Below, piece after piece: positions 2,660 to 64,000 of a stretch of DNA of 64,000 bases. Where the stretch lies: contig CAIQUS010000060.1 in assembly GCA_903875045.1 (NCBI GenBank), positions 5,690 to 69,689 on the forward strand, written 5' to 3'. Below the pieces are notes generated by a model. The model saw only the letters and a program-made list of their open reading frames with translations, made no database searches and was not told the DNA's origin. The position numbers and the translations under genes are program-made. Origin of the DNA: an uncultured Bacteroidales bacterium. Lineage in GTDB: Bacteria > Bacteroidota > Bacteroidia > Bacteroidales > FEN-979. Numbering within the stretch: the first letter of the stretch is position 1; each line of letters starts with the position of its first letter.

Positions 2660-3892
2660 TCAGAGGCTTCCTTCATCGTATGCTTTTTCTCCATGCAACG
2701 CCACATCCAGGCCTTGTTTTTCATGTTGTTCCGACACACGCACCTTTGTTACCAGGTTGATCAATGCCAGCATGATGTAGGTGAAAATGAAGGCGTAGGC
2801 TGAAGCGGCAATTACAGTGATCAGTTGTTTAAGGAAAAATGAACTTTGTCCAAACCACAATCCTTCGGTTATAACGGCCGGGTTGATCATTTTTGTGGCG
2901 AAAACGCCAAGCAGAATGGTTCCAAGCACACCGCCGATTCCATGAACTCCCCATACATCGAGCGCGTCATCCCAATTCAACTTGTTTTTTAATTGTACAG
3001 CCAGGTAACATGTCACACCGGCCGCTACTCCGATGATGGGCGCCGACCACATGGGGACAAATCCCGCGCATGGAGTGATGGTTGCCAAACCGGCAATGGA
3101 ACCTGTCAACAGCCCAAGAAGTTTCGGACGCCCTTCGCGGATCCATTCAATGGCCACCCAGGCTGCCGTTGCAAAGGATGCTGCAACATCCGTATTAATA
3201 AATGCCAGCGCTGTGATTTTATCTACCTGTAACTCACTGCCGGCATTGAAACCGTACCATCCAAACCATAATAAACCACTCCCGATGGCAACAAGGGGGA
3301 TACTGTTGGGCGTCGAATTTTTATCTGATCGGGCACCTACATAAAATACCGAAGCCAGGGCTGCAAAACCTGCGGTGGCATGTACTACAATCCCACCTGC
3401 AAAATCAAGAACACCCCATTGCGCGAGCAACCCGTTTCCCCAGATCATGTGCACAAACGGATAGTACACCATGATCTGCCAAACAGTCAGAAAGATCATG
3501 TATGACCTGAAGGTTACACGATTTACAAACGCACCTGTAATGAGGGCCGGGGTGATGATTGCAAACATCATCTGGTAAACAATGAAAACAATTTCGGGGA
3601 TTTTTCCGTTGCCTGAATAAATGGAATCGATCGTAATACCGTTCAGAAAGATTTTATCCAGGTTCCCGAAAATCCCGCCTTCTCCGCCACTGAAACAAAG
3701 CGAATATCCGAATGTGACCCATAAAACAGTTGTCCAACCTAAAGAGGCGAAACTTTGTATCATGATCCCCAATATGTTCCTTTTCGTGGCCAGGCCACCA
3801 TAAAAAAACGCCAGTGCCGGCGTCATTAACATAACCAGGCTTGCCGATAACAGCATAAACCCGGTTGATCCAACATCGATTGTGCCTGTCAT
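2660..3892 (-). CDS. amt: Ammonium transporter (Amt family)
   Basis: 410 aa, 11-12 TM segments. 'FMLLSASLVMLMTPALAFFYGGL' and 'VHATAGFAALA' are classic Amt/AmtB motifs. Confidence 0.95.
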   Translation of the reverse strand: MTGTIDVGSTGFMLLSASLVMLMTPALAFFYGGLATKRNILGIMIQSFASLGWTTVLWVTFGYSLCFSGGEGGIFGNLDKIFLNGITIDSIYSGNGKIPEIVFIVYQMMFAIITPALITGAFVNRVTFRSYMIFLTVWQIMVYYPFVHMIWGNGLLAQWGVLDFAGGIVVHATAGFAALASVFYVGARSDKNSTPNSIPLVAIGSGLLWFGWYGFNAGSELQVDKITALAFINTDVAASFATAAWVAIEWIREGRPKLLGLLTGSIAGLATITPCAGFVPMWSAPIIGVAAGVTCYLAVQLKNKLNWDDALDVWGVHGIGGVLGTILLGVFATKMINPAVITEGLWFGQSSFFLKQLITVIAASAYAFIFTYIMLALINLVTKVRVSEQHEKQGLDVALHGEKAYDEGSL

Positions 3893-3894
3893 AC

Positions 3895-3933
3895 AATTTT
3901 AGATTTACGATTTACGATTTACGATTTATGATC
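3895..3933. repeat. Tandem heptamer array (GATTTAC, ~5 units) in the porin-amt spacer
   Basis: aatttta gatttac gatttac gatttac gatttat gatc. Confidence 0.9.
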
Positions 3934-9873: not shown

Positions 9874-11130
9874 TTGAAAACGAAAAAGTTTCTTACCCGG
9901 ACAGTACTGCTCGTATCGTTTGTGAGCCTTTTCACCGATATTGCCAGTGAAATGCTTTATCCGATCATGCCTGTTTACCTTAAATCGATAGGGTTTTCTG
10001 TTTTACTGATAGGGATTCTGGAAGGAGTGGCTGAGGCAACCGCCGGGTTAAGCAAGGGTTATTTCGGGCATCTCTCGGATATCAAAAAACGGCGTGTTCC
10101 ATTTGTGCGTGCCGGTTATATGCTGAGTGCCTTTTCAAAACCCATGATGGCCGTTCTTACCTTCCCGTTATGGATATTTTTTGCCCGGACCCTCGACCGG
10201 TTTGGCAAAGGAATCCGAACAAGTGCCCGCGATGCCATGTTAAGTGACGAAACTACCCCGGAGCACAAAGGAAAAGTGTTTGGCTTTCACCGTTCGATGG
10301 ATACAACCGGCGCTGCCATTGGGCCAATTCTGGCTTTGATCTATCTGTGGTTTTATCCCGGCCAGTACAAATGGATGTTCGTCATAGCATTCGTTCCCGG
10401 CCTCATCGCCATTGCGCTTACATTTTTATTGAAGGATAAGGTTACAGGGTCACAGGGCCACAAGGTCACAGGGCCACAAGGTCACAGGGTCACAAAGTCA
10501 CAAGGTCGCCACATCATCACATCATCAAATCATCATATCGGCTTTTTTTCCTATTTGAAATACTGGTCGCGTGCTTCCTCCGGATTCAGATTTCTGGTTG
10601 CAGGGTTACTTGCGTTTACTCTTTTCAACAGCTCCGATGCTTTCCTTCTGCTGGCACTTAAAGAGCAAAACCTTTCCGATACCATGATGATCGGTGTTTA
10701 TATCTTTTACAATCTTGTTTATGCATTTTTTGCATATCCGGTTGGCGTCCTTGCCGATCGTATCGGGCTCAGAACCATGATGATCATCGGTCTTTTCCTC
10801 TTTGCCTTTGTTTATACAGCCATGGGATTTGCCTCCACCCTGACCATTTTCGGCCTACTCTTTTTTCTATACGGGATTTATGCCGCCTGCACCGAAGGAA
10901 TATCCAAGGCGCTCATCTCGAACATGGCAGATCAGGCCGATACCGCCACCGCCATAGGGTTCTTTAACAGCCTGGCAAGCATATTCACCCTACTTGCAAG
11001 TTCATTGGCCGGGGTGCTGTGGTACTCCATCGGGCCAAAGGCCATGTTTATGATTTCAGGGATCGGGGTTTTTGCGGTGGCGTGTTACCTGTTGTTTGTT
11101 TGGAACCACTTCACAGTGAGAAAGGTATGA
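9874..11130 (+). CDS. MFS transporter carrying a 32-codon repeat-derived insertion in its central loop
   Basis: 418 aa, TTG start, 12 predicted TM segments in a 6+6 layout. The loop segment 'VTGSQGHKVTGPQGHRVTKSQGRHIITSSNHH' is encoded by 12 tandem octamers. Confidence 0.8.
   Translation: MKTKKFLTRTVLLVSFVSLFTDIASEMLYPIMPVYLKSIGFSVLLIGILEGVAEATAGLSKGYFGHLSDIKKRRVPFVRAGYMLSAFSKPMMAVLTFPLWIFFARTLDRFGKGIRTSARDAMLSDETTPEHKGKVFGFHRSMDTTGAAIGPILALIYLWFYPGQYKWMFVIAFVPGLIAIALTFLLKDKVTGSQGHKVTGPQGHRVTKSQGRHIITSSNHHIGFFSYLKYWSRASSGFRFLVAGLLAFTLFNSSDAFLLLALKEQNLSDTMMIGVYIFYNLVYAFFAYPVGVLADRIGLRTMMIIGLFLFAFVYTAMGFASTLTIFGLLFFLYGIYAACTEGISKALISNMADQADTATAIGFFNSLASIFTLLASSLAGVLWYSIGPKAMFMISGIGVFAVACYLLFVWNHFTVRKV
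10441..10536 (+). repeat. Tandem octamer array (12 units, 96 nt) inside the MFS coding sequence, in frame
   Basis: gttacagg gtcacagg gccacaag gtcacagg gccacaag gtcacagg gtcacaaa gtcacaag gtcgccac atcatcac atcatcaa atcatcat, read directly from the sequence. Confidence 0.95.
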
Positions 11131-47667: not shown

Positions 47668-47710
47668 CCCTTTACCATTTCACCATTTCGCCATTTCGCC
47701 ATTTTTCCCC
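47667..47710 (+). repeat. Tandem octamer array (CCATTTCG type, ~5 units) starting at the stop codon of the upstream gene
   Basis: ccatttca ccatttcg ccatttcg ccattttt cccc, read directly. Confidence 0.9.
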
Positions 47711-47815: not shown

Positions 47816-49273
47816 ATGGAATCCCCATCAAACAAAATCCTGGATGAAGTAACGCAGGGTGATTACAAATATGGATTTGTCACGGATATCGAAACGGAAT
47901 TTGCCCCCATCGGACTTTCTGAGGATACCGTCCGTTATATCTCTCAAAAGAAAAACGAACCTGAATTTATGCTTCAATTCAGGTTAAAGGCTTACCGTCA
48001 CTGGCTTACCATGTCGCAGCCCCATTGGGCACACCTGAACATTGAACCGATCAAATTTCAGGATATTATTTTTTACGCAGCCCCAAAGAAAAAGCAGGAG
48101 TTGTCGAGTCTCGATGAGGTTGACCCTGAATTACTGGCAACCTTCAACAAACTGGGGATTTCACTGGATGAACAAAAAAAACTGGCCGGTGTGGCCGGTG
48201 TGGCAGTGGATGCTGTTATTGACAGTGTGTCGGTTAAAACGACGTTTTCAGAGACCCTGTCAAAGCATGGAATTATCTTTTGCTCTTTCAGTGAAGCAGT
48301 TCAAAACCATCCCGACCTGGTGAAACAATACATGGGGTCGGTGGTTCCTTACACGGATAACTATTTTGCCGCGCTCAATTCTGCTGTTTTCAGCGACGGC
48401 TCTTTCTGCTTTATTCCCAAAGGTGTGCGCTGCCCTATGGAATTGTCGACCTACTTTCGTATCAATGCTGCCAATACAGGTCAATTTGAACGTACGCTTA
48501 TTGTTGCAGAGGAGGGGGCTTATGTGAGTTATATGGAAGGTTGTACGGCACCCCAGCGTGATGAAAACCAGCTTCATGCCGCCATTGTCGAAATTGTGGC
48601 CATGAAAGATGCTGAAGTAAAGTATTCAACCGTGCAAAACTGGTATCCCGGCGACAAAAACGGGTTGGGCGGGATTTATAATTTTGTGACGAAACGTGGC
48701 ATCTGCAAGGGGAATAATTCCAAAATCAGCTGGACACAGGTGGAGACAGGCTCATCGATCACCTGGAAATATCCAAGCTGCATCCTGCTTGGAGATCATT
48801 CGGTAGGGGAGTTCTATTCCGTAGCTGTTACCAACAACCACCAGCAGGCCGATACAGGTACAAAAATGATGCACCTTGGTAAAAATACACGCAGTACCAT
48901 CATCTCCAAAGGAATTTCGGCCGGCAAGAGCAATAACTCTTACCGCGGACTGGTACGTATTTCGAAGAATGCGGTCAATTCCCGGAATTACAGCCAATGT
49001 GATTCACTCCTTCTTGGTGCCAAATGCGGGGCACATACCTGGCCGTACATACAGGTTGACAATAAATCATCTATTGTGGAACATGAGGCCACCACTTCGA
49101 AAATATCCGAAGATCAGCTCTTTTATTGCCAGCAACGCGGTATCTCGGCAGAAAGCGCCATCGGCCTCATTGTAAACGGTTATGCAAAGGAGGTGTTGAA
49201 ACAACTGCCCATGGAATTCGCAGTGGAAGCTCAGAAACTGCTGTCTATTTCACTGGAAGGGAGTGTGGGGTAA
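47816..49273 (+). CDS. sufB: Fe-S cluster assembly scaffold protein SufB
   Basis: 485 aa. 'YKYGF', '[14 protein letters not shown]', 'VQNWY' and '[21 protein letters not shown]' are SufB hallmarks. Confidence 0.95.
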
Positions 49274-49326
49274 TGTGATGATGTGATAATGTGATGATGT
49301 GATAATTTGAAGATTTGAGTTTTTTT
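49271..49326 (+). repeat. Tandem octamer array (16-nt super-period) in the sufB-sufC spacer, beginning in the sufB stop codon
   Basis: taatgtga tgatgtga taatgtga tgatgtga taatttga agatttga gttttttt. Confidence 0.9.
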
Positions 49327-59614: not shown

Positions 59615-59944
59615 TCAGTTAATTCCGATTATTTTTTCTACCGATCCGATCAAATCCTGCCAATCGGCGGTCAGCCCTGCCAGGTATTTCATACCCGTTT
59701 CGGTAATCTGGTGGTATTTTCGCGGAGGCCCCGATTTCGACTCTTCCCAGCGATACACCGTGAGCCCGTCGTTTTTCAGCCGTGTGAGCAACGGGTACAA
59801 GGTTCCTTCAACAACGATGAGTTTTGCTTCCTTTAACTTCGTGATGATGTCGGAAGCATAAGCGTCCTGTTTTGCGATGATCGCCAGGATACAGAGTTCG
59901 AGGACTCCTTTTCGCATCTGGGCATTTTGGTTTTCTGTGTTCAT
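59615..59944 (-). CDS. PadR-family transcriptional regulator
   Basis: Start reset to 'MNTENQNAQMRKGVLELCILAII'. 'GTLYPLLTRLKNDGL' is a winged-helix PadR signature. Confidence 0.85.
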   Translation of the reverse strand: MNTENQNAQMRKGVLELCILAIIAKQDAYASDIITKLKEAKLIVVEGTLYPLLTRLKNDGLTVYRWEESKSGPPRKYHQITETGMKYLAGLTADWQDLIGSVEKIIGIN

Positions 59945-60015
59945 GCGGCAAAGGTAATATAATTTTAGTACTATGCAATGCAAGGTAGTATAATTTATGA
60001 TTTTTTAACAGAAGA

Positions 60016-60141
60016 GTGGGCGAGTGGACGAGTGGGCGAGTGGGCAGGTGAACGGGTTGACGGGTGAACGGGTGAACGGGTAAACGGGTAGACGGGCGAA
60101 CGGGTAAACGGGTAAACAGGTGGACGGGTGAACAGGTGTGG
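60016..60141 (+). repeat. Tandem octamer array, G-rich orientation, ~15.75 units (left arm of the four-helix-bundle cassette)
   Basis: gtgggcga gtggacga gtgggcga gtgggcag gtgaacgg gttgacgg gtgaacgg gtgaacgg gtaaacgg gtagacgg gcgaacgg gtaaacgg gtaaacag gtggacgg gtgaacag gtgtgg. Confidence 0.95.
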
Positions 60142-60205
60142 ATAAAAGTTATTAACAAAGGGCTTACTTTAATCATTTTTTCTGATAAAGCATTAAATAA
60201 AAGCA

Positions 60206-60556
60206 ATGTATGCACATAAAAAGTTATCTTTATGGCAGGGGAGTATGGATCTTGCGGTAATTGTTTATCGGGTTACAGCCGGATTCCCGAAATCCGAAAT
60301 GTTTGGATTATCAAGCCAGGTCAGGAGATCCGTAGTATCAATTCCAGCAAACATCAGTGAAGGAGCAGGCCGTGGCAGACCGAGAGAATTTATCAGGTTT
60401 CTAAGAATATCAAATGGTAGTCTTTCCGAACTTGATACACATTTGGATCTGGCTTTCCGACTCAATTATATCGAAGCGGAGACCTTTAACGATCTCACGG
60501 GCAAAATGAGAAAAATCAGTGCACAAATTTCCGGTTTGATCAGATCACTGGAATAA
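60206..60556 (+). CDS. Four-helix-bundle protein (23S rRNA intervening-sequence protein / S23p family, the fold family of DGR Avd)
   Basis: 116 aa. 'LAVIVYRVTAGFPKSEMFGLSSQVRRSVVSIPANISEGAGR....EFIRFLRISNGSLSELDTHL' is the characteristic signature of this family. Confidence 0.85.
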   Translation: MYAHKKLSLWQGSMDLAVIVYRVTAGFPKSEMFGLSSQVRRSVVSIPANISEGAGRGRPREFIRFLRISNGSLSELDTHLDLAFRLNYIEAETFNDLTGKMRKISAQISGLIRSLE

Positions 60557-60573
60557 AAACCAAAATATCATTT

Positions 60574-60645
60574 CACCCGTTTACCTGTTTACCTGTTTAC
60601 CTGTTTACCTGTTTACTTGTTCACTCGCCCACTCGTCCACACATT
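60574..60645 (+). repeat. Tandem octamer array, C-rich orientation, 9 units (right arm, mirror image of 60016-60141)
   Basis: cacccgtt tacctgtt x4 tacttgtt cactcgcc cactcgtc cacacatt. 60622-60640 is the exact reverse complement of 60024-60042 (19 nt). Confidence 0.95.
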
Positions 60646-60650
60646 TTCCT

Positions 60651-60658
60651 TAACTTTG
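60651..60658 (+). promoter_or_regulatory. Candidate -7 box (TAacTTTG) for sufE
   Basis: taactttg lies 21 nt upstream of the ATG at 60679, directly after the array. Confidence 0.4.
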
Positions 60659-60678
60659 CTCCTTAAATATAGCCTCCT

Positions 60679-61104
60679 ATGACCATCCCAGAAAAAGAAT
60701 CCCAAATCATCACCGAGTTCGCCATGTTCGACGACTGGATTGATAAATACAATTACCTTATTGAACTTGGGAAAACACTTAACGTGATCGAAGAACAGTA
60801 TAAAACAGACCAATACCTGATTACCGGATGCCAGTCGAAGGTGTGGCTTCACGCATCCATCAGGGAAGGCAAGGTGGTTTTCACCGGCGACAGCGATGCC
60901 ATCATCACAAAAGGGATTGTGAGCCTGCTGATACAGGTGCTTTCCGATCAAACCCCCGATGAAATCATCCAGGCAAAACTGGAATTTATCGACAAGATCG
61001 GTTTGCAGGAACACCTCTCACCAACCCGCAGCAACGGACTTTCGGCGATGATCAAACAGATGAAACTTTATGCCACTGTATTTAAAATGAAACGCGGAAA
61101 CTAA
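60679..61104 (+). CDS. sufE: SufE-family cysteine desulfuration (sulfur acceptor) protein
   Basis: 141 aa. 'DWIDKYNYLIELGK' and 'ITGCQSKVWL' (persulfide-accepting Cys) motifs. Confidence 0.85.
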   Translation: MTIPEKESQIITEFAMFDDWIDKYNYLIELGKTLNVIEEQYKTDQYLITGCQSKVWLHASIREGKVVFTGDSDAIITKGIVSLLIQVLSDQTPDEIIQAKLEFIDKIGLQEHLSPTRSNGLSAMIKQMKLYATVFKMKRGN

Positions 61105-61108
61105 CTAA

Positions 61109-61150
61109 AACCGTTCACACCTTTATCTCCACCCGTTACCCGTCCACCCT
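61109..61150 (+). repeat. Degenerate C-rich octamer array after the sufE stop
   Basis: ccgttcac acctttat ctccaccc gttacccg tccaccct. The 8-nt phase is weak but recognisable and the words are shared with neighbouring arrays. Confidence 0.5.
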
Positions 61151-61156
61151 ATAATT

Positions 61157-61240
61157 CCGTACCTACGGCACGGAAAATGGTTATGATCTATGACTGGCTA
61201 CCAAAAGTTGGCTCCTACGGAGCCGGAAGGTAAATTTGCC
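61157..61240 (+). repeat. 84-nt double-hairpin element, copy 1
   Basis: Hairpin 1 is ccgtacc-tac-ggcacgg and hairpin 2 is ggctcc-tac-ggagcc, 53 nt apart. 72 of 84 positions are identical to copy 2, and both hairpins are 100% conserved. Confidence 0.85.
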
Positions 61241-61242
61241 TG

Positions 61243-61346
61243 CCACTCGTCCACTCGTCCACTTGCCCACTCGTCCACTCGTCCACTTGCCCACTCGCCC
61301 ACTCGTCCACTCGCCCACTTGCCCACTCGCCCACTCGCCCAACTGA
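61243..61346 (+). repeat. Tandem octamer array, C-rich, 13 units, abutting the ATPase stop codon
   Basis: ccactcgt x2 ccacttgc ccactcgt x2 ccacttgc ccactcgc ccactcgt ccactcgc ccacttgc ccactcgc x2 ccaactga. Confidence 0.95.
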
Positions 61347-62470
61347 TCACCCTAAAACCTCCGGATAATTCTTCCGATTAACTTCCCTGAATGTGAAAGG
61401 TTGATATTCTTTGCTAAAACTTTCAGGTATCCGGATTCTCTTTGATGGACTCCATTTAAACTCAAAAGCCTCAAATTCGGCATTTTTTTCCCGCACCAGG
61501 TCAACTTCCTGTTGCTGGTGTGTCCGCCAGAAATAATAAGAGGCGATATTGTCCTCATATTGATCTTTCTTGATGATTTCGCTAACGAGGTAGTTCTCCC
61601 ACAATTTTCCGGTATCATCACGTAATGCAAGTGGGTTGAACTGATTGATCAGGGCGTTTCTTATACCGTTGTCCCAAAAATAGACCTTTCGGGATTTCTT
61701 TATTTCATTGCGTTGATTCCTTGCAAGTGATGGCAGTGTGAAAATTACAAACGACTTTTCCAGAAGATCGAGGTAGCGGATCACGGTATTCCGGTCGCAT
61801 CCTGCAGTTTCTCCCAATTCGGTGAGGGAAACTTCACCGGTGATCTGGAGTGCAAGTGCTTTCAATATTTTGGGAATGATGCTGGGTTTTCTGACCGAAT
61901 CCAATGACAAAATATCCTTGTACAGGTAATCTCCTGCAAGTTCATGAAGGAGCTTTGGCTTTTCCAGTTGTGAAAGAACAATTTCCGGATACATGCCGTA
62001 AATTAGCCGCTGTTCAAGCAGCCGGTTTTCTTCCATTTCCGAAAAAGCCCCGGTCAGTTCTGAATAAGAAAACGGGTGAAGTTGAAACTCAAGTTTTCTT
62101 CCGGTAAGCGGCTCGTGAATAGTGTCCCGTAACCCCAGTGCAGAGGATCCTGTGACAATCAGTTGAATATCCTTCAGATGATCAGTAATCAGTTTTAGTG
62201 TAACGCCAATGTTTTGAATCCGCTGTGCTTCATCGATGATCAGCAATTCCTTGTTTCCAATCCTGTGCTTGAGTTCTGTCGAACCTGGACGGTTGAGAAA
62301 CTGTTCCACATCCGGTTCATCACAATTCAGGAATAAAAATGATTTTCCGATGATTTTGCCAATTCCAGCGCCAGTGTTGTTTTCCCGACCTGCCGTGCAC
62401 CGGTGATGTGAACTGCTTTCCCACTGAAAAGGTATTTTTCAATGACCGCCTGAAGCTTCCTCTGAATCAT
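61347..62470 (-). pseudogene. AAA+ ATPase (AAA_14 + DUF4143 type) interrupted by a -1 frameshift in a homopolymer
   Basis: The N-terminal 47 codons 'MIQRKLQAVIEKYLFSGKAVHITGARQVGKTTLALELA...' (Walker A) stop at 62327-62329. The +2 frame continues 'KIIGKSFLFLNCDEPDVEQFLN...IIDEAQRI...' into the 320-aa ORF. The switch maps to the A4 run at 62354-62357. Confidence 0.75.
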
Positions 62471-62532
62471 AATATATGAATTAATTCACAAGTTTAATAT
62501 AAAATTCATGAATAGGTTCCTATATTTTAATA

Positions 62533-62572
62533 AATGGCGAAATGTCGAAATGGCGAAATAGCGAAATCAGAT
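62533..62572 (+). repeat. Tandem octamer array (AATGGCGA type, 5 units)
   Basis: aatggcga aatgtcga aatggcga aatagcga aatcagat. This is the reverse complement of the CCATTTCG word family. Confidence 0.9.
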
Positions 62573-62587
62573 TTCCTGTAAATAATC

Positions 62588-62671
62588 CCGTACCTACGGC
62601 ACGGAAAATCATTATAATTACTGACCGGCTATCAATATTTGGCTCCTACGGAGCCGAAAGGTAAATTCGCC
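62588..62671 (+). repeat. 84-nt double-hairpin element, copy 2
   Basis: Same two hairpins with the same 53-nt spacing as copy 1. It is flanked by inverted arrays (62533-62572 and 62663-62694). Confidence 0.85.
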
Positions 62672-62766
62672 ATTTCGCCATTTTCCCATTTTCCCTGTTT
62701 ACCCGTTCACCTGTTTCCCTTTCCACCTGCCCACTCGCCCACTTGCCCACTTGCCCACCTGGTCAC
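62663..62766 (+). repeat. Tandem octamer array, 13 units, with a stepwise gradient of unit types, abutting the oxidoreductase stop codon
   Basis: aaattcgc catttcgc cattttcc x2 ctgtttac ccgttcac ctgtttcc ctttccac ctgcccac tcgcccac ttgcccac x2 ctggtcac. Confidence 0.95.
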
Positions 62767-63407
62767 CTCCTCAACAATTTAAACGCATGTCCCCACTCAT
62801 TCCTGAGAAATCCCGGGATACACCACAACATACACAGTGGTTCAATAGCTCTTGCAGCCTCAACCGCACCCATATCCTCAGTTTCCCAGCCAAACTGGCC
62901 GAGGATGGCAGTTACCTGTCTTTTTGCCTCCGGATCGTTACCGCATATAAACATGGATGGTTTGATCCCGCCGAAATCGGGGTTGATCATAAAGTTGTTT
63001 CCCACGCTGTTAAAGGCTTTAACAAACCGTGCTTCGGGCACCACCAACTGCAACTGTTCCATCTGGGAACTGCCGAGATTGGTGTAATATTGCAGTACTC
63101 CGTTCACGGGGGCAGCATCGGCAATAGGATTCGTGGTATCAATCACGATCTTTCCTCGAAAATTGGTAATACCCGCAAGTTGGAGGGCTGCTTCTGCCAT
63201 GTTTCCTTTTACGGCAAGGACGATGATTTCTCCGAATGCAGCAGCATCTCTGAAGCTCCCTGTAACGGCATTGTTCGTTTTGAGCCATTCAGCCAGTTTC
63301 GAAATGTCTCTTGTGCCCAGCATTACGTCATATCCGTGTTTCAGGAAGCCACTTCCCAGCATCTGGGCGACAACGCCTGAACCTAAAATTCCGATTTTTG
63401 TTTTCAT
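62763..63407 (-). CDS. NAD(P)-binding oxidoreductase (NADPH-dependent F420 reductase / ProC-like Rossmann family)
   Basis: 214 aa. The N-terminal 'KIGILGSGVVAQMLGSGFLKHGYDV' dinucleotide fold and overall similarity recalled to NpdG-like proteins. Confidence 0.7.
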   Translation of the reverse strand: MKTKIGILGSGVVAQMLGSGFLKHGYDVMLGTRDISKLAEWLKTNNAVTGSFRDAAAFGEIIVLAVKGNMAEAALQLAGITNFRGKIVIDTTNPIADAAPVNGVLQYYTNLGSSQMEQLQLVVPEARFVKAFNSVGNNFMINPDFGGIKPSMFICGNDPEAKRQVTAILGQFGWETEDMGAVEAARAIEPLCMLWCIPGFLRNEWGHAFKLLRR

Positions 63408-63456
63408 TGTTTTTGAAGGTTTGGTTTATGATTGGTTAGTATACTTGGGTTTGTTG

Positions 63457-63507
63457 GCAAGTGGGCGAGTGGGCGAGTGGACAAGTGGACGAGTGGGCGG
63501 GTGGGGG
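63457..63507 (+). repeat. Tandem octamer array, G-rich orientation, ~6 units
   Basis: gcaagtgg gcgagtgg gcgagtgg acaagtgg acgagtgg gcgggtgg ggg. Confidence 0.9.
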
Positions 63508-63630
63508 AAATTAGTTGTTCCTGGATTTCCACCCGGCAATTACCTCTTTCAAATGAACCCTTCTCTGTTGGCAAAGGAGGAGAGTTTTTGGGGTAAAGTG
63601 TTGTATGTCCTTCCGAGCGCATGGATCGAT

Positions 63631-64000
63631 TCATGAAGAAGTATTATTATCCCCATGTGTCCACCTGCCCACTCGTCCACTCGCCCACTTGCCCACCTTT
63701 TTCCTTATCCTCCCGACCACCGAAAACCTCGACATATCTATCAGTTTATGATTCAGCAGATAGGTAATCACCCTTTTTTCGATTTCATGGTGGAGCGGAA
63801 GGAGGATTGCTATGAGAAAAATTTTAATAAGCAGTACTTTCCAGGGTTCGCCATGAGTGATCTCTTCTATCCTGTGATCAGCCAGTAAAATAATGAACTC
63901 AAAGAGGAAGATGAATGAGAAGAAACCCAGCATCCTGATGATCCACTCGGGAACCTTCAGGCTCCCAAGCATGATCAATAATACAAATGCCGAAAGGATC
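63631..64000 (-). CDS. C-terminal fragment of a membrane protein; reading frame is open to the window edge and its last ~16 codons lie in an octamer array
   Basis: There is no in-frame stop between 63978 and 64000. Two hydrophobic helices are visible. The tail '...KKVGKWASGRVGRWTHGDNNTSS' is translated from the array at 63653-63700. Confidence 0.35.
   Translation of the reverse strand, partial: ILSAFVLLIMLGSLKVPEWIIRMLGFFSFIFLFEFIILLADHRIEEITHGEPWKVLLIKIFLIAILLPLHHEIEKRVITYLLNHKLIDMSRFSVVGRIRKKVGKWASGRVGRWTHGDNNTSS
63653..63700 (+). repeat. Tandem octamer array, C-rich orientation, 6 units (inverted partner of 63457-63507)
   Basis: ccatgtgt ccacctgc ccactcgt ccactcgc ccacttgc ccaccttt. Its reverse complement has the same unit order as 63457-63507. 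Confidence 0.9.

Follow-up and report, generated by a model that had tools for sequence, protein, structure and literature searches.

Two copies of a double-hairpin element beside an ATPase pseudogene of an uncultured Bacteroidales bacterium belong to a dispersed repeat family that, in related genomes, clusters around a Y1 transposase gene

Why does a short element with two hairpins occur twice, in the same orientation, on either side of an ATPase pseudogene in contig CAIQUS010000060.1 of an uncultured Bacteroidales bacterium? The window studied here, i.e., the whole stretch of that contig that was analyzed, is 64 kb in length, and all positions and strands are given in its numbering. The copies might belong with the ATPase gene to a composite unit, might act as RNA, might be a private duplication, or might be members of a wider repeat family. 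We find that they are two members of a dispersed repeat family rather than a private duplication or a composite transposon. We consider it probable that this family is non-autonomous, similar to the repetitive extragenic palindromes (REPs) or to the palindrome-associated transposable elements (PATEs), and that it is served in trans by a Y1 enzyme.

A repeat finder returned the two copies as a 90-nt direct repeat with 86% identity (61151-61240 and 62582-62671). Across the 84-nt span given in the preliminary description, i.e., 61157-61240 and 62588-62671, identity is 72/84, and a re-count confirmed that all 12 differences (offsets 23, 24, 29, 32, 33, 34, 39, 45, 49, 51, 70 and 81) fall outside the hairpins; there is not one mismatch between the copies within hairpin 1 (offsets 1-17) or hairpin 2 (offsets 54-68). 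To the left of the 84-nt span the repeat extends for a further 6 nt (ATAAT[T/C]), and beyond the repeat the sequences immediately outside copy 1 and copy 2 are unrelated to each other. Even with three mismatches tolerated, the window has exactly two matches to the hairpin-1 17-mer, CCGTACCTACGGCACGG, the expectation being 0.01, and there are also two occurrences of the hairpin-2 15-mer, GGCTCCTACGGAGCC. The hairpins had been described as exactly 53 nt apart, which is correct for their starts but not for their CCTACGG cores, which are separated by 52 nt (61162 and 61214 in copy 1; 62593 and 62645 in copy 2). Likewise, the two palindromes are indeed present and fully conserved, but hairpin 1 is imperfect on the + strand, where it contains an A.C mismatch. 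On the - strand this position is a G.U pair and the stem is a clean 9 bp, and the - strand folds more strongly, with z scores of -4.05 and -3.20 for the two copies compared with -2.72 and -1.90 for the + strand.

Both elements are intergenic and are read here on the + strand. Copy 1 (61151-61240), which served as the reference copy of the repeat finder, lies between the convergent sufE and ATPase pseudogene, and copy 2 (62582-62671) between the start of the ATPase pseudogene and the 3' end of an F420-reductase-like gene, where it is flanked on both sides by inverted AAATGGCG/CGCCATTT octamer arrays. In each copy both hairpins are on one strand, the ends (ATAAT.../...TTTGCC) are non-complementary, without terminal inverted repeats, and scans with the 17-mer and with R1, a covariance model of the family unit, revealed no inverted partner unit.

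The wider distribution was obtained from a species-level scan with the hairpin-1 17-mer, using one genome per species (596 Gb), in which at least 120 stretches matched (L-numbers below denote these and other genome loci). Among the matches listed, 100 of 120 stretches were from Bacteroidota, Balneolales, Ignavibacteria or Kapaibacterium, and within those 100 stretches 98 of 127 occurrences of the 17-mer were followed by a CTAC-type motif and a downstream hairpin. By our own arithmetic, about 70 occurrences would be expected by chance in 596 Gb, counting both strands. Matches in Streptomyces, Dryocola, Polyangiaceae and similar, which fall in apparent coding sequence and from which the architecture is absent, are taken as chance. 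The closest relatives among the matches listed are Bacteroidales or Bacteroidetes metagenome-assembled genomes (MAGs; L006/L018, L042 and L105), in which the second stem is GGCTCC/GGAGCC, as in the window, and the elements likewise lie within short-period arrays. Single MAGs carry several copies (at least nine in JACJYA01 and at least five in CAVPYW01), and in other samples the contigs of this organism assembled from short reads end inside or just past the element, as expected of a repeat present in many copies.

Within the family some units stand alone, whereas others are paired on one strand at a distance of about 53 nt (the form present in the window), form head-to-head doublets (L022, L028, L060, L062, L091, L104 and others), or are repeated in tandem about every 53 nt. 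An inverted hairpin-1 core, CGTGCCGTAGGTACG, lies roughly 15-45 nt upstream of hairpin 1 in L139-L141, L143, L144 and many Sphingobacteriales loci (e.g., L015, L020, L031 and L044), giving a local three-hairpin unit. The 17-mer is also present in genomes of the Planctomycetes-Verrucomicrobia-Chlamydiae (PVC) group, i.e., in L069, L079, L082 (Phycisphaerales MAG JACKHI01), L027 and L090 (Lentisphaeria/Victivallaceae). There it is followed by different hairpins, e.g., GCGTCCCTATCGGGACGC, which suggests related repeat families outside the Fibrobacteres-Chlorobi-Bacteroidetes group. A blastn search of PLSDB plasmids with copy 2 gave zero matches, as did a search of viral contigs with the 17-mer. 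In Joint Genome Institute (JGI) metagenomes a lineage-specific double-hairpin pattern had no match, and a 22-mer had six, every one of them from another lineage.

The conservation of the unit was assessed in an alignment made from the second hairpins, i.e., from parts outside the search query. The family unit reads TTTgCTACCgAyATTT, then a 6-bp stem, a loop of 3-4 nt (TAC, TAAC or GAT) and the returning arm of the stem. Of the CTAC motif, C5, T6 and A7 are invariant, and the two loop-proximal C-G pairs are almost so, whereas the four outer stem pairs vary by compensatory change. The CTACC tag is located 7 nt 5' of the 6-bp stem, corresponding on the other strand to GGTAG 3' of the hairpin. In the MAFFT alignment (A2) the 3-nt and 4-nt loops were out of register, and a structure-based re-alignment was therefore made. 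In alignment A3, which was restricted to units with at least five pairs and so gives upper estimates, 96% of cells were paired and two-sided changes were seen in 59 cells compared with 17 in shuffles; in slid controls, pairing was 31-52%. In A4 (122 distinct units, model-derived), where a bias to structure likewise makes the figures upper estimates, 93% of cells were paired and there were double changes in 168 cells, compared with 52 when shuffled. The variety of the stems is also evident in the raw list of units. The earlier proposal of selection on the structures, made from the two window copies, is thus borne out by covariation of the hairpin-2 stem across the family.

In an R1 scan of the 64-kb window, the only full units were the two second hairpins, the first hairpins being partial matches. 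The full unit of copy 1 (61194-61226, + strand) scored 36.7 bits (E = 1.8e-7) and comprises a CTACC motif at 61198-61202 and hairpin 2 (GGCTCC-TAC-GGAGCC) at 61210-61224. That of copy 2 (62625-62657, + strand) scored 37.9 bits (E = 8.6e-8), with CTATC at 62629-62633 and hairpin 2 at 62641-62655. The first hairpins (61157-61173 and 62588-62604, + strand), both exact copies of the 17-mer, scored 14.4 and 13.2 bits, respectively; that of copy 1 (CCGTACC-TAC-GGCACGG) folds.

These results bear directly on the idea that the window copies represent a private local duplication in which the palindromes arose by chance, without family or function. In its favor, two copies are all that the window holds. 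However, the same architecture is common to more than 100 loci elsewhere, its stems covary, and the flanks of the two copies are unrelated. We therefore regard this idea, which the preliminary description had named as the finding that would undo its proposal, as exceedingly improbable.

Covariation is equally compatible with a function in RNA. The hairpins might act primarily in this way, either as 3'-end stabilizers or terminators of the F420-reductase-like and ATPase mRNAs, when read on the - strand, or as small structured RNAs. On the - strand both the F420-reductase-like gene and the ATPase do have these hairpins downstream of them, and it is this strand that folds better, G.U replacing A.C. 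Across the family, A.C mismatches on the model strand exceed G.T (35 versus 11; 20 versus 11 with the GTACC stem excluded), and the complement, i.e., the - strand in the window, is therefore favored as the folding strand. Two hairpins were also flagged as terminator-like on the - strand. However, the count of terminator-like hairpins (3) was within the expectation from shuffles (1.7 +/- 1.5), so that an intrinsic terminator was rejected, and a T-run is not a feature of the family. With Rfam 15 at gathering thresholds the whole window gave no match; under permissive conditions (E <= 10) in the region 59800-64000, the only hit on the element was CRISPR-DR57, at 16.1 bits compared with a threshold of 39. 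Moreover, units point either way, recur in tandem about every 53 nt, and gather by Y1 genes in groups of as many as about 30, which is the behavior of a DNA repeat and not of an RNA tied to one gene. A primary function as RNA appears unlikely to us; the hairpins might still affect transcripts secondarily, as REPs are known to do.

The Y1 genes came to light when all open reading frames (ORFs) of the at least 120 loci were clustered. One small protein family recurred near the units, in 5 of the at least 120 loci (L034, L039, L050, L063 and L089), and in those five the units directly adjoin the gene on one or both sides. The protein is of a 153-aa class (range 153-158 aa) and matches PF01797 (Y1_Tnp) with 98-102 bits. 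It passes the NCBIfam IS200/IS605 model NF033573 (67 bits; cut-off 55) and fails the NCBIfam RayT model, REP_Tyr_transpos (36.8 bits; cut-off 80). The nearest solved structures are the TnpA proteins of ISDra2 (best PDB match, E = 3.6e-5) and IS608, and the Escherichia coli REP-associated tyrosine transposase (RAYT) was absent from PDB matches at E <= 1. Its motifs are DH[IV]H, WQ and YIxNQxxHH (Y---Q--HH). In JGI annotation these proteins bear the name "REP element-mobilizing transposase RayT", which seems to be a generic label and not an actual finding.

Because these five loci had been picked by the DNA motif, the association was tested in reverse, from the protein side. A protein homology search yielded more than 8000 homologue clusters, many on contigs of about 1 kb; six Y1 homologues on long contigs were chosen by homology alone, and 3 kb was fetched on each side (P-numbers denote the Y1 protein queries). 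At all six genes (6/6), R1 matches were packed against the gene and were nearly absent from the rest of the locus of about 6 kb. Around the gene of P0064 (3001-3465) there were 11 matches, in 2779-2972 and 3508-3933; P0011 had 4 matches by the gene, P0025 had 18, and P0061 had 27, spanning about 2 kb. Just downstream of the gene there were 2 matches in P0082 and about 12 weaker ones in P0018. At L129 the Y1 stop codon is followed immediately by CCGTACC-TAAC-GGCACGG, a 28-nt spacer, TTTTTACCAATAT and a second hairpin, which is the double-hairpin architecture of the window at a locus chosen independently of it. Clustered units were present at 11 of 11 loci carrying a Y1 gene of this type, which corresponds to TnpA_Y1 subclass 1.2. 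The suggestion that the palindromes recall REPs served by RAYT-type transposases was therefore correct in that hairpin repeats do cluster around an IS200-like Y1 gene in relatives, but neither the canonical definition of a REP nor RAYT proper applies.

At two loci the units coincide with called genes. In L126 (3001-4204), where the Y1 gene lies inside a type I restriction-modification operon (hsdM, Y1, ..., hsdS), it is followed by about 700 nt of alternating hairpin units that were called as a 247-aa ORF without a Pfam match, and in L147 (3480-5467) about 2 kb of units overlap a called 311-aa ORF. Unit arrays thus probably create spurious gene calls in MAGs.

If the elements are dispersed repeats, what is the relation of the window copies to the gene between them? 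This gene, which we judge to lie outside the element, encodes an ATPase with Pfam AAA_14 and DUF4143 domains (61347-62470, - strand) and has a frameshift near 62330. The same split into 47-aa and 320-aa ORFs was found in three independent assemblies, and the gene is therefore a real pseudogene, as had been proposed. The two copies and the ATPase could form a single mobile or once-integrated unit, either a circle of ATPase plus element that entered a chromosomal element by Campbell-type integration, or a composite transposon. Consistent with this, a single gene has a copy on either side of it, both pointing the same way, and the only two full units in 64 kb occupy adjacent intergenic regions. 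The gene also does move: intact orthologues of 374 aa, with 78-84% identity, occur in three unrelated neighborhoods (L135, L137 and L138), each preceded by the same upstream region of about 60 nt. However, there were no R1 units in any of these three loci, and no enrichment of AAA_14/DUF4143 clusters near elements in the at least 120 loci. In addition, the window copies differ at 14% of positions, their outside flanks are unrelated, and REP-like repeats are commonly found in neighboring intergenic regions. Since the ATPase has orthologues without elements, we reject the composite unit that had been suggested, and consider the shared origin in its various forms, recombination between two elements included, very unlikely. 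The neighborhoods indicate that the ATPase moves between contexts, but not with these elements, and the element-gene-element layout in the window is best read as a coincidence of neighbors. At L138 (4860-6300) the ATPase is bracketed by a 19-nt direct repeat, CCCTTAATGACCTTAATGA, and at L135 (4860-6300) it is followed by (CTTCTGAC)n.

How might such repeats be maintained? The TnpA proteins of IS200/IS605 and the E. coli TnpA_REP act on single-stranded DNA, in which they bind hairpins and make their cut at a short sequence that is specified beside the hairpin, and they prefer the lagging-strand template (summarized in PMC6006769). In the explanation that we favor, the basic unit combines a conserved single-stranded motif with a short G+C-rich hairpin that lies at a fixed distance after it. 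The window element has two such hairpins, the first being the widely conserved CCGTACC/GGCACGG and the second carrying the full CTACC motif. When the DNA is single-stranded, e.g., on the lagging-strand template, the hairpins would be bound by a Y1 enzyme encoded elsewhere in the genome, which would recognize the hairpin together with the CTACC/GGTAG motif at its fixed distance. By cutting and rejoining near CTAC/GTAG, the enzyme would then act in trans to spread the repeats or to maintain them. Each window copy would reside separately in its own intergenic region, the two regions being neighbors, and the ATPase pseudogene would be a bystander. If transcripts are affected at all, through 3'-end hairpins on the - strand, this would be a secondary effect.

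Several points weigh against this explanation. The R1 scan found only two full units within 64 kb, and near-invariant positions are altered in both, T14 to G in copy 1 and C8 to T in copy 2, so that the window copies may be decaying relics. The conservation of hairpin 1 in the at least 120 loci is partly a product of the query used to find them. By tblastn, the 64-kb window contains no Y1 gene, which also bears out the earlier statement that no RAYT-type gene lies in it. Relative to the Y1 gene, units point both ways, without consistency between loci, and a fixed orientation was rejected on these grounds. We found no empty site and no presence/absence polymorphism: contigs carrying the F420-reductase-like protein of the window or its ATPase ORF had the same arrangement, and L134, the one other contig with this locus, was identical to the window. 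Finally, the one clear case of recent amplification, in the Lewinellaceae MAG JACJYA01, involves a 270-nt unit resembling a miniature inverted-repeat transposable element (MITE). It has perfect 20-nt terminal inverted repeats (TATGCGAATCCAGAGCTAAA), TA on both flanks, and two double-hairpin elements inside, head to head. At least nine nearly identical copies occupy different sites, often within (ATATTGTT)n arrays (L022, L028, L062, L067, L099, L103, L106 and L112). This unit looks like a DDE-type MITE that carries the hairpins, rather than a product of Y1-type movement.

Short tandem arrays are a prominent feature of the region. Degenerate 8-nt arrays fill many intergenic regions of the window (60014-60138, 60575-60640, 61243-61341, 62532-62567, 62663-62761, 63456-63505, 63659-63698, 47674-47704 and 49273-49318), several as inverted pairs. 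One pair, (GNGTNNAC)n and its complement (66 nt, 82% complementary), brackets a gene for a PF05635 four-helix-bundle protein ('23S rRNA IVS protein') at 60206-60556; a further inverted pair brackets an ORF-less stretch of 150 nt (63505-63659), and arrays lie on both sides of sufB. An octamer array at 10438-10539 lies within the ORF of a major facilitator superfamily-type transporter (9874-11130), in frame, as 24-nt/8-aa repeats (KVTGSQGH KVTGPQGH RVTKSQGR), so that the arrays are not limited to intergenic DNA. Such arrays of 7-8 nt can be likened to the short tandemly repeated repetitive sequences of cyanobacteria. Periods of 7 and 8 were the commonest tandem periods in the at least 120 genome loci. 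A local tie between octamer arrays and the element was considered and rejected, the odds ratio falling from 2.2 (p = 0.012) to 1.5 (p = 0.30) after control for intergenic length.

A broader reading would join these observations. The CTACC-hairpin units would be the missing cognate repeats of subclass 1.2, in a phylum-wide, largely vertically kept REPtron-like system of Bacteroidota and their relatives, and the Y1 enzyme would also be tied to the 7-8-nt arrays and to the small gene cassettes (the ATPase and the four-helix-bundle protein) that lie between them. As a whole we give this joint reading only a slim chance; the evidence presented here supports its cognate-repeat half, not its array and cassette half. 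If that half is true, subclass 1.2 of Bacteroidetes and Cyanobacteria, otherwise without substrate or role, gains candidate repeats. The anatomy of the candidate substrate is defined, i.e., a fixed CTACC motif, a fixed spacing and a covarying hairpin, its units can be found with a covariance model, and the neighborhood of gene and repeats is consistent in 11 loci. In Bacteroidota MAGs, the units would also account for assemblies that repeatedly break and for ORFs that are called spuriously. The outcome for the window itself is modest: two ordinary members of the family, and an ATPase that is not cargo.

REP/RAYT systems have been well studied in Proteobacteria, where they are regarded as domesticated, vertically inherited replicators. 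The present family resembles these systems (the REPtrons, bacterial interspersed mosaic elements (BIMEs) and REP doublets (REPINs) of Proteobacteria) in having short G+C-rich hairpins with an unpaired CTAC/GTAG tag. Like them, it consists at the family level of dispersed, intergenic, imperfect palindromes, and in relatives clusters of repeats flank a low-copy Y1 HuH gene. However, a canonical REP has GT[AG]G 0-2 nt 5' of the hairpin foot (PMC6006769), whereas this family has CTACC, 7 nt from the stem, as its tag and lacks GT[AG]G at that position. In the partner protein the motif is Y---Q--HH, in RAYT (class 2 TnpA_REP) it is Y---NP. Membership of the canonical REP/RAYT systems thus fails on two defining features, the hairpin-foot GT[AG]G and the Y---NP partner. 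Inverted doublets are seen in several genomes of the family, but the window element differs from the inverted doublet of a BIME or REPIN, its two hairpins being in direct orientation.

With IS200/IS605 the family shares, in relatives, a partner gene for an IS200-type Y1 HuH transposase. As in IS200/IS605 and PATEs, the window element has same-strand hairpins and no terminal inverted repeats, as if a left and a right end had been joined. In contrast to IS200/IS605, what borders the Y1 gene is not one left and one right end but arrays in which many units point either way, and unlike those of an active insertion sequence, the genes of subclass 1.2 are present in low copy number and have diverged from one another within a genome (mean of 1.7 copies, 36% identity; PMC6006769).

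For RAYTs and REPINs of Bacteroidota, our literature search found only two surveys, and the hairpin sequence was not found in the literature searched. In their survey of tagged REPs, Di Nocera et al. (PMC3733652) described GTAG repeats from Proteobacteria, Cyanobacteria, Chloroflexi and the PVC group; for Bacteroidetes they described CGTC repeats only. The other survey, by Quentin et al. (2018; PMC6006769), includes subclass 2.6 and class 3, which are likewise Y1 genes of Bacteroidetes or other non-proteobacterial groups with non-canonical flanking hairpins and copies elsewhere in the genome, the atypical hairpins having been found by manual inspection. These belong to other protein subclasses and are set apart by their motifs, NH[LIV]H and YIH[QN]NP in subclass 2.6 and NHVH in class 3. 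The Y1 proteins described here agree instead with subclass 1.2 in size (about 148-158 aa), in motifs (DH[IV]H, WQ and YIxNQxxHH) and in their distribution in Bacteroidetes. Subclass 1.2 was listed without associated REPs (PMC6006769), and within the literature searched its pairing with a defined repeat family is not on record. Unlike subclass 1.2 as surveyed, every one of the 11 Y1 loci in our analysis carries clustered hairpin units.

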